A stretch of 53,962 bases of DNA from Candidatus Polarisedimenticolia bacterium (GTDB taxonomy: Bacteria > Chloroflexota > Limnocylindria > Limnocylindrales > CSP1-4). A program made the position numbers and the translations under genes. The number at the start of each line of letters is the position of its first letter. Position 1 is the first letter of the stretch. The notes under the pieces were generated by a model. That model was not told the origin of the DNA. It searched no databases and was given only the letters and a program-made list of their open reading frames with translations. This document shows positions 2,465-18,544 of this stretch, piece by piece. The stretch lies in NCBI GenBank assembly GCA_035649355.1, contig DASRJS010000056.1, positions 1 to 53,962 of the forward strand, in the 5' to 3' direction.

Positions 2465-4411
2465 GTGGACGAGCTGACTCGCCCCGCATCGAACGAACCG
2501 GACGTCGAGCTCGAAGCCGAAGCCGCTGCCGCCCCGGAAGCCGTCGAGGCATCCGAACCTGAGGCGATCGAAGCCAACGCCGCCGCGGAGCTCGATGAAG
2601 CGCCCGCCGCCGACGACAGCGTCGAATCGGAAGAACCGACCGAGCCCGACGTTGCCACCGAGCCCGACGTTGCCACCGAGCCCGAGGTCGCCACCGAACC
2701 CGAGGTCGCCACCGAACCCGAGCCGGCCCCACCGGCCGGACCCCGAACCGTCGCACAGGCCGTCGCCGCTGCGCTCCGAGCCGCCGGTGTGCGATGGGCC
2801 TACGGCGTCCCCGGAGAGAGCTTCCTGCCCCTTCTCGACGCCCTGGCCGAGGCCGGGATCCACGTCGTCGCGACCCGACACGAAGGCGCCGCGGCCTTCA
2901 TGGCCGACGCCCACGGTCAGCTGACCGGCCGGCCCGCGATCTGCATGGGCACACGCGCAGTTGGCGCGTCAAACCTCGCGATTGGCATTCACACCGCTCG
3001 CGCAAATTCGAGCCCGATGTTCGCCCTGGTCGGGCAGGTCGACTCGAGCCGTCGCGGGCGCGAGGCGTTCCAGGAGGTCGACCTCGCCGGCACGATCGGC
3101 GGCCTTGCCAAGTTCGCCGCCGAGCCGACCGACGCCCGCGAGGCCGCCGATGCCATCGTCGAGGCCGTTCGGCAGGCGCTCGGCGGCCGTCCGGGGCCAG
3201 CGCTCCTCTCGCTGCGCGAAGACCTGCTCGACAGCGAGCTGCCCGAGGGCGTCACTGCCTCACCGCCGCGGATCACGGCGGCTCGCCCCGACGATGCCGA
3301 TGTTCGCGCCGTTCTGCACCTGCTCGCCTCGTCCGAGCGGCCCGTGATCCTTGCCGGCGCCGGGGTGCTGCGGGCGCGAACCTCAAACGACCTCGTCCGC
3401 CTCGCCGAGCTCCTGCGCGTGCCGATCGTCGCCTCGTGGCGTCGCGGCGACGTCATCTCGAACGACCATCCGCTGTATCTCGGGATGAGCGGCTACTACG
3501 CGTCGCCGACCGTCCGGCCACGGCTGGAGGCGGCGGACGCGATGCTCGTCATCGGCTGTCGCCTGAACGAGATCACCTCGTTTGGCTGGACCGTGCCGGG
3601 TCCGGCCACGCGCTGGGCCCACGTGGACGTGGAGCCCGTGCGGCCGAGCGCCGAGCTTCAAGCCGCGGACATCACGGTCGCGGCCGACGCCCGGCTGTTC
3701 GTGAAAGCCGCGGTCGCGAGGCTCGAGGGCAACGGTGTCCTCGACGCTGCGATCGCCGACCGACGTAGCGCCGCGAACGCCGAGGATCGCGCCGCCTTCG
3801 AAGCCGCCACGACGGTCGACGACGCTCCGTGGAGCGGACCGGGCGTCCATCCCGGTCGGGTTATCGCGACCCTTCGGCGCGTGCTGCCCGACGATGCGAT
3901 CGTGGCGACGGACGCCGGCAACTTCAGCGGCTGGCTGTCACGCGGCTTCCGATTCCGAAGGCCCGGGACGTTCCTTGGTCCGACCTCCGGCGCCATGGGG
4001 GCGGGCCTGCCCGCGGCCATTGCGGCCGCGCTTGTCCATCGCGACCGGGCGGTGGTCGCGCTCGTCGGCGACGGTGGGCTCGGGATGGCCCTCGCCGAGC
4101 TCGAGACCGCGGTCCGCGAGCATGCCAAGGTCGTCGTTCTCGTCTTCGACAACGAACGCTACGGGACGATCCGGATGCACCAGGATCGTGAAGGCCACGA
4201 GCCGATCGCAACGGACCTCGGCCCCTTCGACTTCGCGGCCGTGGCGCGTGCCGCCGGAGCGCGTGGAGTTCGTGTCGACGACGACGCGGCATTTGAACCG
4301 GCGCTCCGCCAGGCGCTCGTGTCGGATCGCACGACGCTCATCCATCTCGGCCTCGACCGCGCCTGGGTCGATGCCGACAGCCGTCCCGGAGGGACCTCGG
4401 CCGCGAGCTAG
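2465..4411 (+). CDS. Thiamine-diphosphate-dependent enzyme (acetolactate synthase large-subunit-like) with a ~95-aa acidic repeat N-terminal extension
   Basis: The TPP-enzyme N-terminal core GVRWAYGVPGESFLPLLDAL begins near nt 2750. A TPP-binding GDG block VALVGDGGLGMALAELETA...NNE-type (FDNERYG) is near the C-terminus. The only in-frame starts upstream of the core are GTG 2465 and CTG 2474, because the in-frame TAG 2450-2452 closes the frame. Confidence 0.85.
   Translation: MDELTRPASNEPDVELEAEAAAAPEAVEASEPEAIEANAAAELDEAPAADDSVESEEPTEPDVATEPDVATEPEVATEPEVATEPEPAPPAGPRTVAQAVAAALRAAGVRWAYGVPGESFLPLLDALAEAGIHVVATRHEGAAAFMADAHGQLTGRPAICMGTRAVGASNLAIGIHTARANSSPMFALVGQVDSSRRGREAFQEVDLAGTIGGLAKFAAEPTDAREAADAIVEAVRQALGGRPGPALLSLREDLLDSELPEGVTASPPRITAARPDDADVRAVLHLLASSERPVILAGAGVLRARTSNDLVRLAELLRVPIVASWRRGDVISNDHPLYLGMSGYYASPTVRPRLEAADAMLVIGCRLNEITSFGWTVPGPATRWAHVDVEPVRPSAELQAADITVAADARLFVKAAVARLEGNGVLDAAIADRRSAANAEDRAAFEAATTVDDAPWSGPGVHPGRVIATLRRVLPDDAIVATDAGNFSGWLSRGFRFRRPGTFLGPTSGAMGAGLPAAIAAALVHRDRAVVALVGDGGLGMALAELETAVREHAKVVVLVFDNERYGTIRMHQDREGHEPIATDLGPFDFAAVARAAGARGVRVDDDAAFEPALRQALVSDRTTLIHLGLDRAWVDADSRPGGTSAAS
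2639..2728 (+). repeat. In-frame 18-nt tandem repeat, about 4.5-5 units, encoding TEPDVA/TEPEVA
   Basis: Units 2639-2656 and 2657-2674 are identical (ACCGAGCCCGACGTTGCC). Units 2675-2692 and 2693-2710 differ at 1-3 positions. The fifth unit (2711-2728) is degenerate. Confidence 0.9.
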
Positions 4412-5199
4412 CCGCTCAGCGTCCCGGCGGGCGTCCCGATGAGCCCGAGGCCGCGCTCGCCGTTCGCGACATGGAGCGTGAGCGAATTCGCATCGAGCGA
4501 CCACACCGGATCGCCGTTGAGCGTCGCCATGACGGCCGCCTCGAGCTGCCCGGCATCGCCCTCGCAAGCCCGTTTGGTCATGGCGAGGTCGCTGAAGTGG
4601 ATCAGGGCGCCGTCCACGACGTATCGCCCGCCGCCCTGATTGCAACCCGTGTTGAACGTGATCTGACCGGTGGTGTTGAAGACGAGCGTCGCCGTGACAT
4701 CCGACATGCCCATGCCTGCATCTGATGCAACGAAGACGGTGGTCACGGTCCAGAGCGTGCCCACGAGCGGCAGGTCCGGTTCGGCGATCTCACGGTCGAG
4801 GAGCGTGATCACGGTGTCGCCCGAGCGCAGGATGAGCTCGTTGCCGGCGACGGAGATCGTTGGAGCACCTCCGAGGAAACCGAACAACCAGTCGTCCTGT
4901 GCCATCCGATCCGGGTCACAGCCCATCTCGGTCATCCCGCCGCCGTCGATCCGGAGGACCGCACCGTCGAGACGGTACGTGCCGCCGAAGCTGTTACAGC
5001 CGGCCTGAGCGCCGATCGAGCCGTCCTTGGTGAAGCTCAGGCGGATCTGGGTGCCTGCGACGAGAACCATCGGAGCGCCCGCGACCGTGACACCGGTCGA
5101 GAGGAACGTGCGGCCCTCCACGCTCGATGCGCTGCCGCCGCCGAGGAGACCGCAGCCGGCGAGCGCCAGCCCGAGGGCGACGAGTGAGAGGCGGATCAT
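4408..5199 (-). CDS. META (HslJ-like) domain lipoprotein, two META repeats
   Basis: ATG 5199 gives the lipoprotein signal MIRLSLVALGLALAGC. There are two repeats with GCNSFGGTYRLDG / GCNQGGGRYVVDG motifs. The stop shares the palindrome CTAG (4408-4411) with the convergent TPP gene. The extension to 5283 adds no signal-peptide logic. Confidence 0.8.
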   Translation of the reverse strand: MIRLSLVALGLALAGCGLLGGGSASSVEGRTFLSTGVTVAGAPMVLVAGTQIRLSFTKDGSIGAQAGCNSFGGTYRLDGAVLRIDGGGMTEMGCDPDRMAQDDWLFGFLGGAPTISVAGNELILRSGDTVITLLDREIAEPDLPLVGTLWTVTTVFVASDAGMGMSDVTATLVFNTTGQITFNTGCNQGGGRYVVDGALIHFSDLAMTKRACEGDAGQLEAAVMATLNGDPVWSLDANSLTLHVANGERGLGLIGTPAGTLSG

Positions 5200-6673: not shown

Positions 6674-8046
6674 GCCACATGCAGATCCACCAACTGACCC
6701 TCATCGAGCTCGCCGGGGCGATCCAACGCCGCGAGCTATCGTCCCGCGAGATCGTCGACGCACTGCTGCGCCGGATCGGTGAGGTCAATCCACGGCTGAA
6801 CGCCGTCGTCACGCTGGCCGACGATGCCCTCGATCGAGCACGCGCGGCGGACGCCGAGCTCGATCACGGCACGGTCCGAGGGCCGCTCCATGGTGTTCCG
6901 ATCACGCTCAAGGACTCGATCGACACGGCCGGCCTTCGAACCACCGCCGGGACGGCGGGCTGGCGCGACCGCGTCCCCGAGCGCGATGCGACCGTGGCTG
7001 CGCGCCTGAAGGCCGCGGGCGCGATCGTGATCGGGAAGACGAACACGCCCGAGTTCACGTGGTCCGATCGCACCGACAACGATGTCTTCGGCCGAACGAA
7101 CAACCCGTGGGACCTCGAGCGCTCACCCGGCGGCAGCAGCGGCGGCTCGGCCGCGATCGTCGCGGCCGGTGGGTCGCCGCTCGACATCGGCAGCGACACG
7201 GCCGACAGCATCCGCATCCCGTCGCACTACTGCGGTGTCGCCGGGATCAAGCCGACGCAGGGACGGGTCTCGCGGTTCGGGCACAATCCGGCGTTCCACG
7301 GGATCGTCGGCTCGTGGACGCAGCTCGGGCCGATCGCCCGGTCCGTGGACGATCTGGTCCTCGCGCTCTCGATCATCGCCGGACCCGACGGCGAGGACCC
7401 GCACCTCCAGCCGATGGAGCTGCGCGACCCGACGAATGTCACCAGCCGCGACCTCCGCGTCGTCTTCTTCACCGACAACGGGATCAGGATTCCAACGCCG
7501 GCGACGATCGAGACCGTTCGTTCGGCCGCGCGCGCGCTTGCGGATGACGGCGCGGCGGTCGCGGAGCGCCTGCCGCCCGGCATCGTCGAGCTCGCGCAGC
7601 TGTGGTGGCCGATCATCCTCGCCGATGGCCACGCCTGGCTGCGGCGCCTGATCACGGCCGCCGGGACGCCGGGCACGGGCTGGTACACGTGGCTCGACGA
7701 CGAGCCGCCAGTCCCGAGCGCGGAGCTCACCGCGATGCTCGAACGGGTCGACGTCACCCGCGCCGCGCTGACGCGCTTCATGCGTGACGTCGACGTGACC
7801 GTGTCGCCCGCCGGGCCGTTGCCGCCGTTCCGCCACGACGAGGCCCACACCGAGAACAACGCCGATTCCTACTGCGAGGCCCACAACGTCAGCGGCTACC
7901 CGTCGGTCGTCGTCCCGGGCGGCGTCGCGGACGGCTTCCCGATCGGCGTCCAGGTCGTCGCCCGGCCCTGGCGCGAGGATCAGGCGTTCGCGGCCGCGAA
8001 GGTCATCGAACACGCGCTCGGCGGCTGGCAGCCACCGCCGATCTGA
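6670..8046 (+). CDS. Amidase (amidase-signature family)
   Basis: The Gly/Ser-rich amidase signature GGSSGGSAAIVAAG is present, with an upstream ITLKDSID block. The length is 458 aa. Confidence 0.9.
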   Translation: MSHMQIHQLTLIELAGAIQRRELSSREIVDALLRRIGEVNPRLNAVVTLADDALDRARAADAELDHGTVRGPLHGVPITLKDSIDTAGLRTTAGTAGWRDRVPERDATVAARLKAAGAIVIGKTNTPEFTWSDRTDNDVFGRTNNPWDLERSPGGSSGGSAAIVAAGGSPLDIGSDTADSIRIPSHYCGVAGIKPTQGRVSRFGHNPAFHGIVGSWTQLGPIARSVDDLVLALSIIAGPDGEDPHLQPMELRDPTNVTSRDLRVVFFTDNGIRIPTPATIETVRSAARALADDGAAVAERLPPGIVELAQLWWPIILADGHAWLRRLITAAGTPGTGWYTWLDDEPPVPSAELTAMLERVDVTRAALTRFMRDVDVTVSPAGPLPPFRHDEAHTENNADSYCEAHNVSGYPSVVVPGGVADGFPIGVQVVARPWREDQAFAAAKVIEHALGGWQPPPI

Positions 8047-8095
8047 GGCTCGCCGCCGTCATGGTCCCGACACAGGCCGCGCCTAGGATTCAGCC

Positions 8096-8509
8096 ATGAC
8101 CGAGACCAAGCCAACCACCACCGTCACGAAGTCCGACGCCGAGTGGCGCGACCAGCTCACGCCGCAGCAGTACCACGTCCTCCGCGAGAAGGGCACCGAG
8201 CGCGCCTTCACCGGCCACCTCTGGAACGAGCACCGGGCGGGGACGTACCGCTGTGCCGGCTGCAGTGCTCCGCTCTTCCGATCCGAGACGAAGTATGAGT
8301 CCGGGACCGGGTGGCCGAGCTTCTACGCCCCGGCCACCCCGGACGCCGTGGCGACCGAGACCGATCGCTCCTGGTTCATGAGCCGGACCGAGGCGATGTG
8401 CGCCGCGTGCGGTGGCCACCTCGGCCACGTCTTCGAGGACGGTCCCGCACCGACGGGCCTCCGCTATTGCATGAACTCCGCGTCGCTGGAGCTCGATCCC
8501 GAGGGCTAG
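8096..8509 (+). CDS. msrB: Peptide-methionine (R)-S-oxide reductase
   Basis: It has two CxxC pairs (CAGC, CAAC), [16 protein letters not shown] and the RYCMNS active-site motif. Confidence 0.95.
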
Positions 8510-8970
8510 AAGAGCCGGATCCGGCGCGGCTGGACACGGAGCGCGACCGAGAAGGCGCGCGCCGTGTCGCCCTCGTCCATGCCCCAGTGCGCGAGCGGAT
8601 CCACGTACTTCGCCCGGTACGCGGGATGAACGTCTGACCGGGCGACGGTCGGGTCCACGACGGCCGTGCCCTCGATGACGAGCGCGTGGTCGCCGTACCC
8701 GTCCGACTGCACGTGAAATCCCACGAGCGGAGATCGGGCGATGTTCCGGAGCTTCGGAGTCTCCGGCTCGCTGTAGATCAAGATCGAGTCACCCTCCCAG
8801 AGGAAGCTCACGACCGACGTCTGAGGCGTTCCGTCGTCGGCCACGGTCGTCAGCCAGCCCACGACGTCACGCTCGAGACGCTCGCGCGCCCACGCTCCGG
8901 TGGCGTCGTGGGGAATCTCGGCGAGGGACTTGATGATCACGCGCTGATCTCGATCTGGGACCGTCTGCAA
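8506..8970 (-). CDS. PNPOx-like split-barrel protein (PPOX-class probable F420-dependent enzyme)
   Basis: The pattern [29 protein letters not shown]...ALVIEGTA is typical of the pyridoxamine 5'-phosphate oxidase-like fold. It converges on msrB with a 4-nt overlap. Confidence 0.65.
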
Positions 8971-9036
8971 GACTCATATCCAGCGCCGACGGTAGGCTCA
9001 CGGTAGCGAAAGCGAGGTGCCCGTGAACGTCCGACG

Positions 9037-10065
9037 ATGGCTCCGCCGGTCCTGTCCCAGCGCGCGCTGAATCGAGCGTTGCTCGAGCGGCAGCTACTGC
9101 TCGAGCGTTCGTCGCTCTCGATCACGGACGCGATCGAGCAGGTCGGTGGGCTGCAGACCCAGTACGCGCCGTCCGGGTACGTCGGGCTCTGGACACGACT
9201 GCGGGACTTCAGGCGAGATGACCTGACGCGCGCGCTGGAGGACCGCAGCGTTGTCCAGGCCACGCTGCTCCGGGGCACGATCCACATGGTCTCGCGGGCC
9301 GACTTCTGGCCGTATGCCGAGGCGATCCGCCGGTCGCGCCAGGAGTGGGCGGCGCGGGCAGCGGTGATGCCACCGGCCGCGGAGCTGCGCGCGAAGGCGG
9401 ACGCGCTCCGGCAGGCCCTCGCCAACGGGCCGAGGACGGTGAAGGAGCTCGGCGAGATGGGTCGCGGGTTCGTCGGGAACCTCGGGCTCTGGGTTGACAT
9501 CGTGCGCGTGCCGCCATCCGGCACCTGGGAACGTCGTCGCGCCGACCGGCTCGCGCTCGCCGAGGCCTGGATCGGCACGGCCGGCGTGACCGAGACCGAG
9601 GGCCTCACGCACATCGTCCGGGCGTACCTGCGCGGCTTCGCGCCCGCGTCATGGAGGGACGTTGCGAGCTGGGCCGGGATCTCCGTGCAGGATGCGAAGC
9701 GGGCAGGGGAGGCCCTCGAGCTCAAGGTCTACCGCGACGACGCGGGCAAGGAGCTCTTCGACCTGGCCGGCCTGTCGATCCCGGATGAGCGCGAGCCCGC
9801 CCCGGTCCGCTTCCTCCCGCACTGGGACAACAACCTGCTCGTCCATGCCCGGCGGACCGGGATCCTGCCGGAGGCGCACCGGGGCAAGGTCTTCTCGACG
9901 AAGAACCCGTTCTCCGTTGGCGTCGCGCTCGTCGACGGGCGGGCCGTCGCCGGCTGGACCCCGCGCGAGGGCCGGATCGAGCTGGAGCCGTACGAGGAGC
10001 TGTCGCCGAAGGACGCCCGCGCCGTCGAACGGGAGCGAGAGGCGCTCGAAGCCTTCCACGCCTGA
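9037..10065 (+). CDS. Winged-helix DNA-binding protein of the YcaQ/AlkZ (DUF1006) family, a putative crosslink-repair DNA glycosylase
   Basis: The N-terminal block LLERQLLLERSSLSITDAIEQVGGLQTQYAPSGYVGLWTRL...VVQATLLRGTIHMV fits the family, as does the length of 342 aa. Confidence 0.7.
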   Translation: MAPPVLSQRALNRALLERQLLLERSSLSITDAIEQVGGLQTQYAPSGYVGLWTRLRDFRRDDLTRALEDRSVVQATLLRGTIHMVSRADFWPYAEAIRRSRQEWAARAAVMPPAAELRAKADALRQALANGPRTVKELGEMGRGFVGNLGLWVDIVRVPPSGTWERRRADRLALAEAWIGTAGVTETEGLTHIVRAYLRGFAPASWRDVASWAGISVQDAKRAGEALELKVYRDDAGKELFDLAGLSIPDEREPAPVRFLPHWDNNLLVHARRTGILPEAHRGKVFSTKNPFSVGVALVDGRAVAGWTPREGRIELEPYEELSPKDARAVEREREALEAFHA

Positions 10066-13608: not shown

Positions 13609-14097
13609 TCACCGGCCAACAGGAACCGCGAGCTGGGCGAGCAGCTCGTCGAGGCGCTCGTAGCCCTCGTTCACGCCTTCCGCCATGCCGGCCTGGACCA
13701 TCGCATCGCGGGCTTCGACCGACTGGTACACGGAGTGGTTCCGAATCCGCGTTCGACCGTTTCCGAGGTCCTCGAAGACGACCTTCTCGAGCGAGACATG
13801 GCCGGGTGCGCCGTCGAACTCGAAGGTCTGGACCATGTTGTCCGGCGCGATGCTGTGGAAGACGCCGTGGAAGCCGTATGCATTGCCGGCATCGTCGCGA
13901 TGGACGTATCGCCAGGCACCGCCGTCGCGAACGTCCCAGCGGTCGACGACCATCTCGTACTTTCGCGGGCCCAGCCACTGCTTCAGCAGCTCCGGATCGG
14001 TGTACGCGCGGTAGACGAGCGCGCGCGGCGCCGCGACCTCGCGGGTGATCTCAATGAAGGGCGTGCCCTCCGGCACGGTGATCTCGGTCGTACCCAT
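13609..14097 (-). CDS. SRPBCC / AHSA1 (Aha1-like) domain protein
   Basis: The pattern ITREVAAPRALVYRAYTDPELLKQWLGP...GFHGVFHSIAP fits the family, which is a typical partner immediately downstream of an ArsR regulator. The start is ATG 14097; an alternative TTG 14136 would overlap the arsR-type stop. Confidence 0.8.
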   Translation of the reverse strand: MGTTEITVPEGTPFIEITREVAAPRALVYRAYTDPELLKQWLGPRKYEMVVDRWDVRDGGAWRYVHRDDAGNAYGFHGVFHSIAPDNMVQTFEFDGAPGHVSLEKVVFEDLGNGRTRIRNHSVYQSVEARDAMVQAGMAEGVNEGYERLDELLAQLAVPVGR

Positions 14098-14132
14098 CGT
14101 CGATGTCCGTCCTTTCCGTGGTTCCAGAGTCG

Positions 14133-14465
14133 TCAATTCGGGGGCTGCTGGAGGCGCTTGAGGAGCTCGTCGAGCCGGTCGAAGCGCTCGTCCCAGAAGG
14201 CCTTGTAGCGGGCCAGCCAGGTCGTTGCCTCGAGGAGCGGCTCGGCTTCGAGGTGGCTCAGCCGGGCGGTCTTCCGCCTGCTGCGCGAGATGAGGCCGGC
14301 GCTTTCGAGCACCTTGAGGTGGCGCGAGATTGCCGGCTGCGAGACAGTGAAGGGGGCGCGAAGCTCGGACACCGTGAGGTCGCCGTCTGCGAGACGCGCC
14401 AGGATGGCGCGCCGCGTGGGGTCGGCGAGGGCGCCGAACACGTTGCTGAGCTGGTCGACGGTCAT
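14133..14465 (-). CDS. ArsR/SmtB family transcriptional regulator
   Basis: The winged-HTH block is DPTRRAILARLADGDLTVSELRAPFTVSQPAISRHLKVLESAGLI. Confidence 0.9.
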   Translation of the reverse strand: MTVDQLSNVFGALADPTRRAILARLADGDLTVSELRAPFTVSQPAISRHLKVLESAGLISRSRRKTARLSHLEAEPLLEATTWLARYKAFWDERFDRLDELLKRLQQPPN

Positions 14466-14468
14466 GGC

Positions 14469-14500
14469 ATAACCATTACGTTATGAAACAATGTGGTTAT
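14469..14500 (-). promoter_or_regulatory. AT-rich inverted repeat ATAACCA-N18-TGGTTAT directly upstream of the ArsR-type gene; candidate operator/promoter
   Basis: This is the only conspicuously AT-rich stretch I noticed in the window (14466-14505). The perfect 7-nt arms lie at 14469-14475 and 14494-14500, ending 3 nt from the ATG. Confidence 0.4.
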
Positions 14501-14523
14501 TAAAGCCGTCGGTCAGTCGCTTG

Positions 14524-14766
14524 TCAAGCCCCCTTGCGGGCCTTCGAGAAGCTCGACTCCTTGATGACCTTGCCGGAGCGGTCGAAGGTGCGCCAGATCC
14601 CGACCTGCTGGCCCCGTTCGAAGGCCCCGCTCCGCATCAGGCTGCCGTCCTTGCGGAAGAACTGCCAGGCGCCGTGCATCTCGCCGTCGAGGTTCTGGCC
14701 ACGGAAACGAATGTTCCCGTTCTCGTAGTGGTCGAGTGCGGGGACCGGGTCGTTCGGCTTCGTCAT
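14524..14766 (-). CDS. MORN-repeat-variant small protein (YwqK-family-like)
   Basis: The 80-aa protein has the repeating pattern YENGNIRFRGQNLDGEMHGAWQFFRKDGSLMRSGAFERGQQVGIWRTFDRSGKV (G-x-W/G-x-x-x-Y/F-x-x-x-G periodicity). It starts 7 nt after the preceding stop. Confidence 0.65.
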   Translation of the reverse strand: MTKPNDPVPALDHYENGNIRFRGQNLDGEMHGAWQFFRKDGSLMRSGAFERGQQVGIWRTFDRSGKVIKESSFSKARKGA

Positions 14767-14773
14767 CGGCGCG

Positions 14774-15052
14774 CTACCAGGAGTTCGTCACCATCTCGAG
14801 CTTGAGCGACCTGCGAACGGGCTCGGCGACCTTCGCGATCTCGTCCCACGCGACTTCCTTGCGGAGGTACTCGAGATCCGCGTCGGTCAGCCGGATGTGA
14901 AGGTGGGCCGCCGCGTTCTCAGGGTCGTCGCGGAGCCAATTGAAGAACTCGTGATCGACGAGGGCGTGCGACGCGAGCAGCTTGAACGCCAGCTCACGCT
15001 CCATGAACCCGTACGGCTCGTGCTCGCCGGTGTTGCCGTTGTCGTCCTTCAT
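14774..15052 (-). CDS. 92-aa peptide with an NHLP (nitrile-hydratase-leader-like) helical region, ending ...LKLEMVTNSW; candidate RiPP/pheromone precursor
   Basis: ATG 15052 is preceded by AGGAGG (7-nt spacer) and overlaps the upstream stop (ATGA 15049-15052). GC3 is very high. The block RELAFKLLASHALVDHEFFNWLRDDPENAAAHLHIRLTDADLEYL resembles the A..D.eF...L..DP..a....gi.L pattern of NHLP leaders, by memory-based comparison only. Confidence 0.5.
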   Translation of the reverse strand: MKDDNGNTGEHEPYGFMERELAFKLLASHALVDHEFFNWLRDDPENAAAHLHIRLTDADLEYLRKEVAWDEIAKVAEPVRRSLKLEMVTNSW

Positions 15053-15984
15053 GTTCGAACCTCCTGCGTGGGGCGGCCGACAAGGCCACCGAAGAAGATC
15101 TGTGCGGCTGTCGTCGCCGCCATCCGGTAGTGCGCGTCGAGGGCTTCGCCCTGGCGACTCGCACGGGATGCGTAATCCAAGAGGAATGCCGCCAGCGGTG
15201 CGCAGCCGAGCCTCCCGGCCAGGTGGGCGGCGGCGGCCGAATCCGTCGCAACCAGCTCAAGCTCCGTGCGCGCCGCTCCCCGCGTCATGAGCGCCGCCAG
15301 AACGGCCGAGCGATTCGCCGCGCGGTGCTCCGGGTCGTGCGGCCGATCGACCAGCGACGCGACGAACGCGTTCCAGCGACCGGCCTCGAGATCCGCCTCC
15401 CAATCACACACCTGGTCGTAGCGAACGAGGGCGGCCAGGGCGTGATCGAGGCAGGCCTTGAGGCCCGAGCGGGCATACGAGCGACCCGAGAGGAGGCACA
15501 CGGCAAACGCGCCGATCCGTAACGGCGCTGCCCGCCCGCCAAGGCGTCGCGCATGCAGCGCTCGACCGTCGGAGGCGTGGCGGAACTCCGCCATCGCTCG
15601 GTCGAGGAACGGCCAGATCGGCGACGTTGGCTGGAACCGATCGCGATACGCGTCGAGCGCGGCGTCGAACAGCACGGTGCTCACCCGCCGGGCACCCTCA
15701 ACGTCGTCCCTTGGCACCTCGCCGTCGTCGAGGTCGTCGCGAAGGCGGATCGCCACGAGCCCGAGGACGTTTCCGACGACCAGTGCTTCCGCGACCTCGG
15801 GTTCGAGCTCCCAGGCGCGCCCGAGCCACCACGGCAGCTGCCATTCGAGGGCCCAGCGCGCCGGCGGCAGGCGACGCAGGGTTCGGATGGCGAGCGCCAG
15901 GTCATCACCGCAGGTCGCGGCCGCGCGCGCCTCGACGGCGGCGGTGATGGAAGCGACGTCCAGATCGGGCACGTCCATTCGCAT
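15049..15984 (-). CDS. Class-I isoprenoid-synthase-fold protein (polyprenyl/phytoene-synthase-like; possible peptide prenyltransferase)
   Basis: It has a first Asp-rich motif, DDLDD (aa 83-87, nt 15724-15738). A second motif, YDQVCDWEADLEAGRWNAF (aa 189-207), resembles SARM / DLxxGK(R)xT(Y)LP blocks. The protein is all-helical and Ala/Leu-rich, 311 aa. Confidence 0.5.
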   Translation of the reverse strand: MRMDVPDLDVASITAAVEARAAATCGDDLALAIRTLRRLPPARWALEWQLPWWLGRAWELEPEVAEALVVGNVLGLVAIRLRDDLDDGEVPRDDVEGARRVSTVLFDAALDAYRDRFQPTSPIWPFLDRAMAEFRHASDGRALHARRLGGRAAPLRIGAFAVCLLSGRSYARSGLKACLDHALAALVRYDQVCDWEADLEAGRWNAFVASLVDRPHDPEHRAANRSAVLAALMTRGAARTELELVATDSAAAAHLAGRLGCAPLAAFLLDYASRASRQGEALDAHYRMAATTAAQIFFGGLVGRPTQEVRT

Positions 15985-16071
15985 CGAAGCCCGGCCATCG
16001 TAGAGGGTCGGGCGGCGTCGGACGCGGGCTACAATCCGCGCCGAACGAGATCGACCAGCAGGGGAGTGGTC

Positions 16072-17175
16072 GTGGCCGAGTCGTCGATCGGAGAGCCCGC
16101 GAAGCGTGCCGAACGCGGCGGACGCGTGCCCCCCGTGCTTCGGCGCCTCGAATCGCGCTGGTCCGTCGAGAACGCAAACGTCGTCGCAGTCGCTGCGGTC
16201 GTCCTGACGGCGTTGGGCCAGCTCGCCGAGGACCTCGCCGACACCGAGCCCCTCCAGCTCCTGGAGCCGGCTGCCGCTGTCCGACGCTGGACGGTCATCG
16301 CCGCCGTGCTCTACCTCGTCGCGATCTCGCGCTTCGTCGACGTGTTCATCGAGCGTTCGCTCGATGACCTGAAGGCCGTCATGGACATCGACGCTCGGAA
16401 GTTCGGGCGCTACGCGCGGAGGCTCGGTCCGCTCCGGCTGCTGATCGACGCCACGGTGCTTGGCGGGGCGGCGCTCGTCGTCGTCGGCCTGTTCGTGGGC
16501 CTCGGCTCCGAGCTGCCGATCGACGATCCGGTGACCGGGCTCCCGATGCCGCTACCGGGCACGGCGCTTGGTCGAGTCGCTGTCCTGGCCGGTTACACGA
16601 TCGTCGGCTGGGCGGCGGTCAGCCTCGTGGTGTCGACGATCCGCCGCGCGATCGCGCTTGGACGGTTATCGCGCGAGGAGCTGAAGGTCGACGTCTTCGA
16701 CACGACGAACCTGCTGCCGTTCGGCAACATCGCGCTCGCGACCGCGCTCGCGCCGGCCGGTTTGATCGTGATCCTGCTCATCGGCTTCGGACGCCCGAGC
16801 GCGCCGGTCAGCTGGAGCATCCTCCTGCTCGCGACCGCGGCGAGCCTCGTTGCGTTGATCCTGCCCCTGCGCGGCGTCCATCGCCAGATGGAGCGCACGA
16901 AGGAGCAGGTCCTCGCGGGCCTGAACGCCAAGCTCCGCGCCATCTACGAGCGGGACCTGGGCAGCGCCGAGACCAGCGACACCGAGGCGGCCCACTTGAA
17001 CAACCGCGCATCGACGCTGACGGCCCTCCGGAAGGTGGTCGGCGAGATGACGACGTGGCCCTTCCAGGACACGCTCGCGTTCGGCCGAGCGGTCCTGATC
17101 GCCATGGCGCCGCTGATCTATACGATCGCGAGCGAGCTCATCAAAGTCTGGTTCATCAACCCGCTGATCACGTAG
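16072..17175 (+). CDS. Hypothetical multi-pass membrane protein
   Basis: GTG 16072 (or 16066) follows GGGGAG (16061-16066). It has about 6-7 hydrophobic helices and a polar segment [30 protein letters not shown]. The tracked start 15553 lies antisense to the isoprenoid-fold gene and is rejected. Confidence 0.55.
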
Positions 17176-17281
17176 CGCGGCGGCCGATGATGGCATCGGA
17201 AGACCGAATCCGATGACCGGCGTAGGCTGGTCGCGACCCCGCGCCCTGATGCGTCCATCGACTTGTTCGAAGGAGGCTTCG

Positions 17282-18544
17282 ATGAGCGACCCCCAACGCC
17301 CCGCGCTCCGCACCCCCCGGCTGGGACGCCGCACGTTCCTCAAGGGATCGATCGCAACCGGGGCCGCGCTGGCCGGCGGCGGACTGTGGACGACCGCGAT
17401 CCAGCCGCGGCCCGTGAAGGCCGCCGACACGCCGATCGAGCACATCGTCGTCGCGATGCAGGAGAACCGCTCGTTCGACCACTACTTCGGATACGCGCCG
17501 TCCGTCCAGGCCGCCGGTTTCGGGCCGCCGCCCGGCTATAGCCAGCCGAACCCAGGCGGCACGCCGGATCCGGTGGAGCCGTATCGCTTCACCGAGCTCC
17601 AGACGCAGGACGTGCCCCACGACTGGGACTCCGTCCATGGACAGATGAACGGCGGAGCGATGAACGGGTTCATGACCCACTCAGGGATCTGGGCCATGGG
17701 CTACTACACGGACCAGGAGCTGCCGTTCTACTACTCGCTGCTCGAGGACTCGACGCTCTGCGCGAACTTCTTCTGTTCCCTGGCGGGCCCAACGTGGCCG
17801 AACCGCTTCTACCTGATGGCCGGGACATCGGGCGGCATCACGACGAACGGCATGTGGGGCTACGGGATTTTCGACCACCCGATGATCCTCGACCTCCTCG
17901 ACGCCGCCGGCGTGACCTGGAAGATCTACAACCTCGGCTGGGACAGCGTGCCCTACGGCAACACCGATAACGTCGCGGTCTTCTGGAAGAACTACGCCCA
18001 CGACATGCGGACGCGCGGCAGCCGCGGCGCCTACCTGAACGACGTTCGCAAGGGCCGTCTGCCTCAGGTCTCGTTCGTCATCCCGAGCTACGCCCGCGGC
18101 TGGGATGAGCATCCGCCGGCCGACGTCCAGGTCGGCATGAACCTGCAGGCCGACAACGTGAATGCGCTGCGCGAGTCGGAGCTCTGGGACAGCTCGGTCT
18201 ACATCATCACGTACGACGAGCATGGCGGGTATTTCGACCACGTGAGCCCACCGGTCGTGGATGCATTCGGGCTCGGGGTCCGCGTGCCGACCTGGGTGAT
18301 CTCGCCCTGGGCGAAGCCAGGGCACCTCGAGGGCCAGACCTACGAGTTCGCCTCGATCCTGCGGTTCATCGAGAAGACGTTCGGCCTGCCGACGCTGGCT
18401 TCGGTGAACCACGTGTTCGACTCGGGGACGCCGGTCGGCGGCAACTACCAGGCAGCCGCACCCGGCGCGATCGCCGGGCCACCCGCGCCACCGCGCGACG
18501 GCATTGAGTCGCTCGGCGATCTTTCGGAGTGCTTCACGTTCTGA
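17282..18544 (+). CDS. Tat-secreted phosphoesterase family protein (phospholipase C / acid phosphatase AcpA-like)
   Basis: ATG 17282 follows GAAGGAGG. The twin-arginine signal is [18 protein letters not shown]. The phosphoesterase block [17 protein letters not shown] is present. Confidence 0.85.

Follow-up and report, generated by a model that had tools for sequence, protein, structure and literature searches.

What does an isoprenoid-synthase-like enzyme do with a small protein that ends in Trp and is encoded directly behind it? Contig DASRJS010000056.1 (53,962 nucleotides, the whole of which is called the window here) raises this question, as the gene for a 311-residue protein with two Asp-rich blocks runs into an open reading frame (ORF) for such a protein of 92 residues. 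A preliminary description of the locus proposed either a ComQ/ComX-like cassette or a novel prenylated RiPP (a peptide made on the ribosome and modified after its translation). Our analysis favors Trp prenylation, but the nearest precedent is PalQ/PalX rather than ComQ/ComX. We consider it probable that a PalQ-like, Mg2+- and prenyl-diphosphate-dependent reaction alkylates the Trp with which the small protein ends, this protein being a member of the NHLP (nitrile-hydratase-like leader peptide) clan, and that the product is then handled by a membrane protein with about seven transmembrane segments (7-TM) encoded on the other side of the enzyme gene. The evidence supports placing the cassette as a distant, uncharacterized relative of PalQ/PalX with an unrelated membrane partner, the chemistry itself being precedented (PalQ/PalX in 2023, StheQ/StheX in 2026).

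The enzyme and its relation to PalQ

Scanned singly, the 311-residue enzyme and 46 of its relatives had no match in Pfam or NCBIfam, the polyprenyl_synt, terpene-synthase and SQS_PSY models included (E <= 1 for the relatives), and the profile of the enzyme family had none among PDB sequences. The preliminary description had suggested such scans as a check for a housekeeping isoprenoid synthase. Judged by their outcome, the enzyme is not one, and it does not match PF00348, the family of housekeeping trans-isoprenyl diphosphate synthases, or trans-IDS. The empty scans are explained by PalQ itself, which has no Pfam or NCBIfam model either. Homology to known enzymes is seen only by fold and by profile-profile comparison with PalQ.

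An AlphaFold2 (AF2) model built with a 47-sequence alignment is all-alpha, with a predicted local distance difference test score (pLDDT) of 93.2 and a predicted template modeling score (pTM) of 0.89; a single-sequence model was poor (pLDDT 46). In a Foldseek search of the PDB, each of the top 50 matches is a class-I isoprenoid-synthase-fold enzyme (50/50, at 12-19% identity), and the best of them, with template modeling (TM) scores of 0.65-0.69, are polyprenyl, octaprenyl and geranylgeranyl diphosphate (GGPP) synthases. On this model, we are confident of a class-I isoprenoid-synthase (trans-IDS) fold, which the preliminary description had guessed from the two acidic blocks. MoeN5 and Ord1, which act on non-isoprenoid small-molecule acceptors, also occur among the top 50, at TM scores of ~0.5-0.6 that are no better than those of ordinary polyprenyl synthases; Ord1 farnesylates free Trp (PMC13290415).

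A word-indexed search returned 111 relatives of the enzyme and an exhaustive search 312 clusters at 50% identity, all annotated as hypothetical and nearly all metagenomic. The aspartates of the first (FARM, DDxxD) and second (SARM, DxxxD) Asp-rich motifs of PalQ-type enzymes are present in 47 of 47 diverse members. Across these, D83, D87, D190, D194, D198, R203, W204 and N205 are invariant, D84 is kept in 46, and every member has H, Q or D at position 191; the alignment reads RLxDDLxDG around the FARM and YDxxxDWxxDLxAGRWNAF around the SARM. The copies in the window are DDLDD (residues D83-D87) and YDQVCDWEADLEAGRWNAF (residues 189-207). Sub-threshold matches to the Pfam family DUF5685 were seen in three enzyme homologues, namely L143:1598-2407, L131:2863-3876 and one member of alignment A1 (E 0.0055, 0.055 and 0.17), and in the two locus proteins they fall around the SARM region. 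From these matches, DUF5685 may be another uncharacterized branch of the enzyme superfamily.

PalQ of Paenibacillus alvei (Miyata, Ito & Fujinami 2023), an enzyme of the isoprene-synthase superfamily, transfers C5, C10 or C15 prenyl groups onto indole C3 and thereby yields a pyrroloindoline (PMC10853753). Its substrate PalX is an 80-residue NHLP-type precursor whose C-terminal Trp is conserved, and in vitro Trp was prenylated solely when it was the last residue of an NHLP-type precursor (PMC10853753). The PalQ locus of P. alvei DSM 29 (L012) and ~70 Paenibacillus/Cohnella loci were recovered by means of a PalX-derived DNA pattern. BLASTP aligned the enzyme with PalQ at E 6e-12 (22% identity over 166 residues). 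By hhalign, the enzyme-family profile matched PalQ (98.8%, E 9e-17) and the 64-member PalQ family (99.9%, E 1e-32, 285 columns), and a more distant subfamily of the enzyme matched the PalQ family at E 1.6e-41. As a relationship between sequences, this full-length remote homology to PalQ is statistically solid. The two enzymes agree in size (312 residues in PalQ, 311 here) and in the all-alpha isoprenoid-synthase fold, and carry the motifs LP(Y/W)W, (Q/R)DDxxD, YRxxFxxxSP(F/I)W, AAP(V/L)(K/R) and DxxxDWxxDLxxGx(Y/W)N in the same order and spacing. The alignment brings the PalQ FARM residues D89/D93, modeled by the authors as the Mg2+/prenyl-diphosphate site (PMC10853753), onto D83/D87, the SARM residues D200/D204 onto D190/D194, D208 onto D198, and N215 onto N205.

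The palX frame at L012:2271-2558 (NZ_AMBZ01000001.1) contains a run of five T at 2501-2505, reads ...DNVRRFSGNPFF... and runs on for another 16 codons. The published PalX end, ...DNVRRFFW-stop, needs six T, and the sister locus L093 encodes ...DNVRRFFW. The five-T run in P. alvei DSM 29 may reflect a homopolymer misread when the draft was sequenced, or a real frameshift of the type strain.

The small protein, its terminal Trp and the third gene

All 31 members scanned from the small-protein family, with PalX as a positive control, match NF038399, the Os1348 family of the NHLP clan (best E 7e-20), and subsets of them match TIGR04509 (9), TIGR03793 (8), NHase_alpha (9) and Frankia_peptide (14). 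By these profiles, NHLP-clan membership is firm at the family level, and the NHLP-like helical segment that the preliminary description saw in the 92-residue protein is borne out there. The window protein itself had no match to TIGR03793 and a faint one to PF14407 (E 0.048). The pattern L..xA(L/M)xDxxFxxxLxxDPxxAA is common to the small proteins and PalX, and the sole invariant columns in a joint alignment of both subfamilies with PalX are P44, in the DP motif, and W92. Both precursors are NHLP-clan proteins of 80-92 residues that end in Trp and are encoded right downstream of the enzyme, but the VIPPxP linker of PalX is missing from the precursor of this clade.

Our census of neighborhoods comprised eight long contigs (L001-L008) and 80 further metagenome loci, together 88 loci and 365 kb. 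The small protein has 185 relatives, and 120 of 120 among those listed end in Trp, with the tails VTNSW (106), VTHSW (8), VTSSW (5) and ITNSW (1). Among the distinct complete small ORFs adjoining enzyme homologues in the 80 further loci, 51 of 53 end in Trp, as do 26 of the 28 distinct pentapeptide tails overall. A census asking whether a short ORF with a C-terminal Trp sits beside enzyme homologues had been suggested in the preliminary description, and these counts answer it in the affirmative. The two small ORFs that end otherwise, in L148 (...HSVWHEPV) and L150 (...VTPCWRG), have a Trp at position -5 or -3, and their tails recall substrates of the ComX/StheX type, in which the Trp is internal, or short follower sequences. 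In L004, a second, divergent precursor copy of 87 residues (7258-7521, +) lies directly after the first and ends in ...MQPTQASW.

The enzyme homologues of L001-L008 are 42-51% identical to each other (79% in one pair), and what these contigs have in common is a divergent membrane protein of ~370 residues, the enzyme and an ORF of 91-104 residues, the remaining genes being different. Presence was counted only in loci with enough flanking DNA to be judged. On this basis, the enzyme gene of the close subfamily is directly followed by the small ORF in 23/23 loci, and the 7-TM gene is present in 8/8. In the distant subfamily (26-39% enzyme identity), the small ORF was found in 26/32 loci by hidden Markov model, with at least two more spotted by eye, and the 7-TM gene in 7/9. 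The small proteins of the distant subfamily are more classical NHLP proteins of ~77 residues with variable tails, such as ...HGISFW, ...RKLGGW, ...HPGVLW and ...QSFSFW. There, the 7-TM homologue has moved to a place on the opposite strand just 3′ of the small ORF, in contrast to its divergent upstream position in the close subfamily. That the linkage of the three genes outlasts such rearrangement argues for joint action of all three, and a three-gene module of enzyme, small protein and 7-TM protein appears to be the best explanation of these neighborhoods. The divergent membrane protein, which the preliminary description had listed as a mere candidate for maturation, export or sensing, has thus turned out to be a core component. 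The most distant enzyme homologue, L173:2851-3939 (+; 27% identity), has no NHLP-type small ORF or 7-TM gene within 3 kb. An ORF downstream of it contains ...TDWSCCITNQ..., does not end in Trp, and may represent a different substrate class.

The 7-TM family has ~7 hydrophobic segments and the motifs QLxEDLxDSxP, RWT, DDPVT, VDVFDTT, GNIALAxxLAPxG, LRGxHxQM and MTTWPFxD; none of 306 homologues carries a Pfam domain. Hydropathy and charge suggest a topology with the N-terminus inside, the acidic motifs facing outward and a helical segment of ~65 residues inside, before the last transmembrane segment. The acidic motifs prompted the idea of an ICMT/Rce1-like or UbiA-like role, for which there is no support, the sole UbiA-family match having E 0.22 in 1 of 29 members. 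In Paenibacillaceae pal loci the third gene is that of PalP, a histidine kinase (PMC10853753). A PalP-like kinase is present in 72 of 74 of these loci and the 7-TM family in none, and it is at the place of PalP that the 7-TM protein stands in this clade. Whereas Paenibacillaceae are the hosts of PalQ, those of the clade are Chloroflexota-type bacteria of high GC content from soil and freshwater, and the nearest relatives of the window come from forest-soil assemblies. The host phylum is probably Chloroflexota, as read from two source names (Chloroflexota; Candidatus Limnocylindrales), GC content and sample types.

A probable reaction and its alternatives

In the scheme that we regard as probable, coupled translation of both genes would give joint production of enzyme and substrate. 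The 92-residue protein would dock on the enzyme through its NHLP helical domain, D83/D87 and D190/D194 would form the binding site for Mg2+ and for an allylic prenyl diphosphate (C5-C20), and the free C-terminal W92 would enter the active site, where its indole would be alkylated. If PalQ and ComQ are a guide, alkylation would occur at C3 with closure of a pyrroloindoline ring. The lipidated product would then be passed to the 7-TM protein, which most likely matures and/or exports it; sensing is a less likely role. The prenyl transfer itself, the donor length, the regiochemistry, any NHLP cleavage and what the membrane protein does we infer. The scheme is supported by the fold, by the homology to PalQ with its matching FARM and SARM aspartates, by the lack of a polyprenyl_synt match, by NHLP-clan membership, by a terminal Trp that persists through at least 26 different tails, by the second precursor copy in L004, and by a triad that is kept despite reordering.

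Several points weigh against this scheme. The enzyme is 16-22% identical to PalQ and the PalQ family; the ~32% level of the PalQ similarity cluster, the threshold that defines it in the network as trans-IDS-like prenyltransferase (PT) ‘cluster 2’ (PMC13290415), is not reached, and the enzymes form a separate clade with a motif signature of their own. A Gln upstream of the SARM (Q197 in PalQ, Q216 in Ord1) has been proposed to recognize the indole (PMC13290415). It lies in the motif LQ(M/L)xDD, which is invariant in >60 Paenibacillaceae PalQs, but its equivalent here is V187 (V39/A5/I3 of 47 members), flanked by L/M/W at 186, L/R at 188 and Y/F at 189, and both subfamilies of the clade carry AV(L/Y)D(H/Q/D)xxDWxxDLxAGR(Y/W)NAF in place of the Gln motif. 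On the side of the substrate, the window protein matches NF038399 at E 1.2e-6 and 28.4 bits, under the 40-bit cutoff, and by hhalign the small-protein family matches that of PalX weakly (29%, E 6e-4), along 31 columns in the NHLP helices. The 7-TM family has no match in Pfam, NCBIfam or PDB sequences, and the steps after modification are hence conjecture. In the loci of the clade the cassette has no linked protease, ABC exporter or kinase, a single kinase-like ORF being found in the 365 kb, ~2.8 kb from the cassette; the neighborhood in the window has no kinase within 6 kb. Two further adverse points lie in the small protein, whose sequence is more conserved than that of the enzyme in 21 of 21 locus pairs (mean identity 58% versus 48%) and whose near-fixed VTNSW tail is unlike ComX/PalX-type pheromones.

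These last two features bring in another possible, though on balance unlikely, reading, in which W92 is prenylated and the 92-residue protein stays uncleaved, the prenyl-Trp tethering the intact protein to the membrane alongside its 7-TM partner. Conservation of a precursor above its enzyme is atypical of RiPP precursors generally, and a typical NHLP precursor has a leader that is removed at a Gly-Gly-type site and a variable core. The small protein of the window has no such GG cleavage motif, and its 13-residue tail is conserved and not variable, so that it does not show the typical NHLP leader/core arrangement. Conservation spans its full length, including the N-terminal EPYGFMERE segment, and the few departures from VTNSW are one residue off. 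A tether would also suit both the missing protease and exporter and an obligate partner that is a highly conserved integral membrane protein. Nevertheless, characterized NHLP-domain proteins are leaders that are removed, PalX being cut 8 residues from its end (PMC10853753), and the distant subfamily has short, variable tails as in RiPP cores or pheromones.

Taken further, the same idea would mean that Chloroflexota-type bacteria use C-terminal Trp prenylation as a lipid anchor, the intact 92-residue protein docking a 7-TM partner of a new family, as a counterpart of CaaX built from unrelated parts; we hold this to be doubtful. Eukaryotic CaaX prenylation (by farnesyltransferase/geranylgeranyltransferase (FTase/GGTase), followed by Rce1 and ICMT) likewise puts a lipid at the extreme C-terminus, after which membrane-protein partners act, but the analogy is functional only. 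It involves Cys-S chemistry and unrelated alpha-alpha-barrel heterodimeric enzymes, and the 7-TM protein, having no Pfam match, has none to Rce1/CPBP or ICMT.

A distinctly improbable reading is quorum sensing of the ComX/PalX type, with a cleaved, released prenyl-peptide and the 7-TM protein as a kinase-less receptor that signals to an unlinked partner through its ~65-residue cytoplasmic helical segment. Both ComQXPA and PalQXP pair enzyme and precursor with a sensor of several transmembrane segments (PMC10853753), the 7-TM protein occupies exactly the place of the PalP-like kinase, and its conserved acidic motifs and helical segment lie on the predicted outer and inner faces, respectively. 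However, the 7-TM protein has no kinase, GGDEF, helix-turn-helix (HTH) or other output domain, hhalign against PalP found nothing, which makes the two unrelated, no response regulator is consistently near the cassette in the loci examined, and the fixed VTNSW tail shows no ComX-like pherotype diversification. The likeness to ComQ/ComX lies in an isoprenoid-synthase-fold enzyme that prenylates the Trp of a peptide encoded right downstream (PMC10853753, PMC13290415). ComQ (IPR033965) has a pseudo-SARM (NDxxx) and acts on an internal Trp of the non-NHLP precursor ComX, with ComP/ComA linked; neither the pseudo-SARM nor such a precursor and its partners were found in this clade, which has an invariant DxxxDWxxD, a terminal Trp and no linked kinase.

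That the 311-residue protein modifies no peptide at all, being a small-molecule terpene synthase or another user of prenyl diphosphates beside an unrelated or regulatory NHLP-like neighbor, is highly improbable: the fold does not discriminate, its best matches being polyprenyl diphosphate synthases, and the Trp-recognizing Gln of PalQ/Ord1 is absent, but significant full-length homology leads specifically to PalQ and to no polyprenyl_synt, terpene-synthase or SQS_PSY model, linkage to a Trp-ended NHLP-clan ORF holds almost everywhere, even where the loci are deeply diverged or rearranged, and the genes in the window are translationally coupled.

The locus, its neighbors and the reach of the chemistry

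Features of the cassette and of the adjoining genes, with their positions in the window
Feature	Position	Strand	Basis or assignment
Enzyme gene, PalQ-like, trans-IDS fold, 311 residues	15049..15984	-	predicted peptide C-terminal-Trp prenyltransferase
FARM, first Asp-rich motif, D83-D84-L-D-D87 within RLxDDLxDG(E/D)	15724..15738	-	conservation and PalQ alignment
SARM region, second Asp-rich block, D190-x3-D194-W-x2-D198-L-x-A-G-R203-W204-N205	15370..15417	-	conservation and PalQ alignment
NHLP-clan small protein, 92 residues, predicted prenyl acceptor	14774..15052	-	NF038399 match, family-level homology
NHLP-type helical domain, small-protein residues 28-79	14816..14971	-	stretch matched by NF038399
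Codon of C-terminal Trp W92, tail VTNSW, predicted modification site	14777..14779	-	terminal-Trp conservation
~7-TM membrane protein, 367 residues, third core component	16072..17175	+ (divergent)	linkage across loci
Divergent intergenic region between enzyme and membrane-protein genes, 87 bp, presumed shared promoter region	15985..16071	.	read from sequence
MORN-repeat protein, 80 residues, peripheral neighbor	14524..14766	-	MORN_2 match
ArsR-family (ArsR/SmtB) regulator, after the MORN gene	14133-14465	-	

On re-reading, what the preliminary description had stated of the sequence was correct throughout: the ORFs, DDLDD and YDQVCDWEADLEAGRWNAF, the ATGA at 15049-15052 in which the TGA of the enzyme gene overlaps the ATG of the small ORF, the AGGAGG at 15060-15065 (7 nt 5′ of that ATG), the C-terminus ...RRSLKLEMVTNSW followed by a TAG stop, the 7 nt from this TAG to the next ORF, and the MORN protein itself. 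The sequence features shared by the cassette are far beyond chance, given the conserved relatives. The very high GC content at third codon positions (GC3) ascribed to the small ORF was measured at 0.91; it marks a coding sequence, yet is ordinary for this region, where the neighbors have 0.81-0.91. GC content is uniform over the window at 68-72%. The membrane-protein ORF truly starts at a GTG at 16072, with homologues of 365-380 residues and a database copy of the window protein of 367 residues; the 540-residue ORF of the ORF list (15553-17175, +) is an over-extension across the enzyme gene, which lies on the other strand. A scan of 14000-17400 showed neither a sigma-70-like consensus promoter nor an intrinsic terminator, but such a scan carries no information for a genome of 68% GC that is probably from Chloroflexota. 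An Rfam scan of the window was empty, and no tRNA genes were found.

The MORN ORF matches MORN_2 (E 2.4e-7, 30.6 bits, cutoff 29.6). In the closest forest-soil relatives, L179-L181, MORN and ArsR genes likewise lie behind the cassette, 7-12 nt after the small ORF, but neither gene does so in L001-L008, where the MORN gene is absent, which indicates synteny at the level of the lineage. The tight spacing suggests that both genes are co-transcribed with the cassette in this lineage. As a maturation factor, for which the preliminary description had also put it forward, the MORN protein was dismissed as a core part, because it occurs only in the closest relatives.

Right after the 7-TM gene lies a phosphoesterase with a twin-arginine translocation (TAT) signal (PF04185, phospholipase C/acid phosphatase family; 17213-18544, +). 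L002 has two PF04185 genes (2790-4043 and 8047-9075) within ~2 kb of the cassette, which is not so in other loci, and the synteny probably has no functional meaning. In L004, the 7-TM gene adjoins one (3611-4744, +) for a CvpA (Colicin_V)-trypsin fusion protein, which could be a lineage-specific maturation protease. The other neighbors in the window have no evident connection to the cassette: DUF1801, F420H2-dependent quinone reductase, AHSA1/SRPBCC and 3-dmu-9_3-mt-like proteins, together with the TAT-signal phosphoesterase.

Two claims to novelty in the preliminary description no longer hold. An enzyme/precursor pair with this chemistry is not new, as PalQ/PalX was already known (PMC10853753), and the first such case outside the Firmicutes is not to be sought here, as StheQ/StheX of Sphaerobacter thermophilus has since been shown, though in a different, ComQ-type branch (bioRxiv 10.64898/2026.08.29.745113). 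StheQ/StheX is, like the present pair, a Chloroflexota enzyme and peptide, with shown Trp prenylation and an IPPS-superfamily fold (bioRxiv 10.64898/2026.08.29.745113). StheQ has a FARM and an NDxxx pseudo-SARM, and the 69-residue StheX has Trp at -3 and -2, of which that at -2 is modified; by the motifs described in the preprint, the clade is set apart through its DxxxDWxxD and terminal Trp.

Few all-alpha Trp prenyltransferases have been characterized, namely ComQ, PalQ, ChrPC-P, Ord1 and now StheQ, while the clade described here comprises ~300 sequence clusters, of which nearly all derive from uncultured bacteria of soil and freshwater. To our knowledge, the exporter of the prenylated ComX peptide is not known. 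The ComX protease has been called unknown as well (PMC10853753). If the proposed reaction is true, its chemistry would be tied to a new, strictly co-inherited membrane protein, an obvious candidate for the processing/export step. PalQ is already being developed as a tool that attaches lipids to peptides and proteins site-specifically at the C-terminus (PMC13290415), and VTNSW would offer an acceptor tag that is fixed and can be transplanted. With the supposedly essential Gln missing, the enzymes of the clade would put the model of Trp recognition to the test, and their regiochemistry or donor length may differ. The phylogenetic range of terminal-Trp prenylation would then be much wider.

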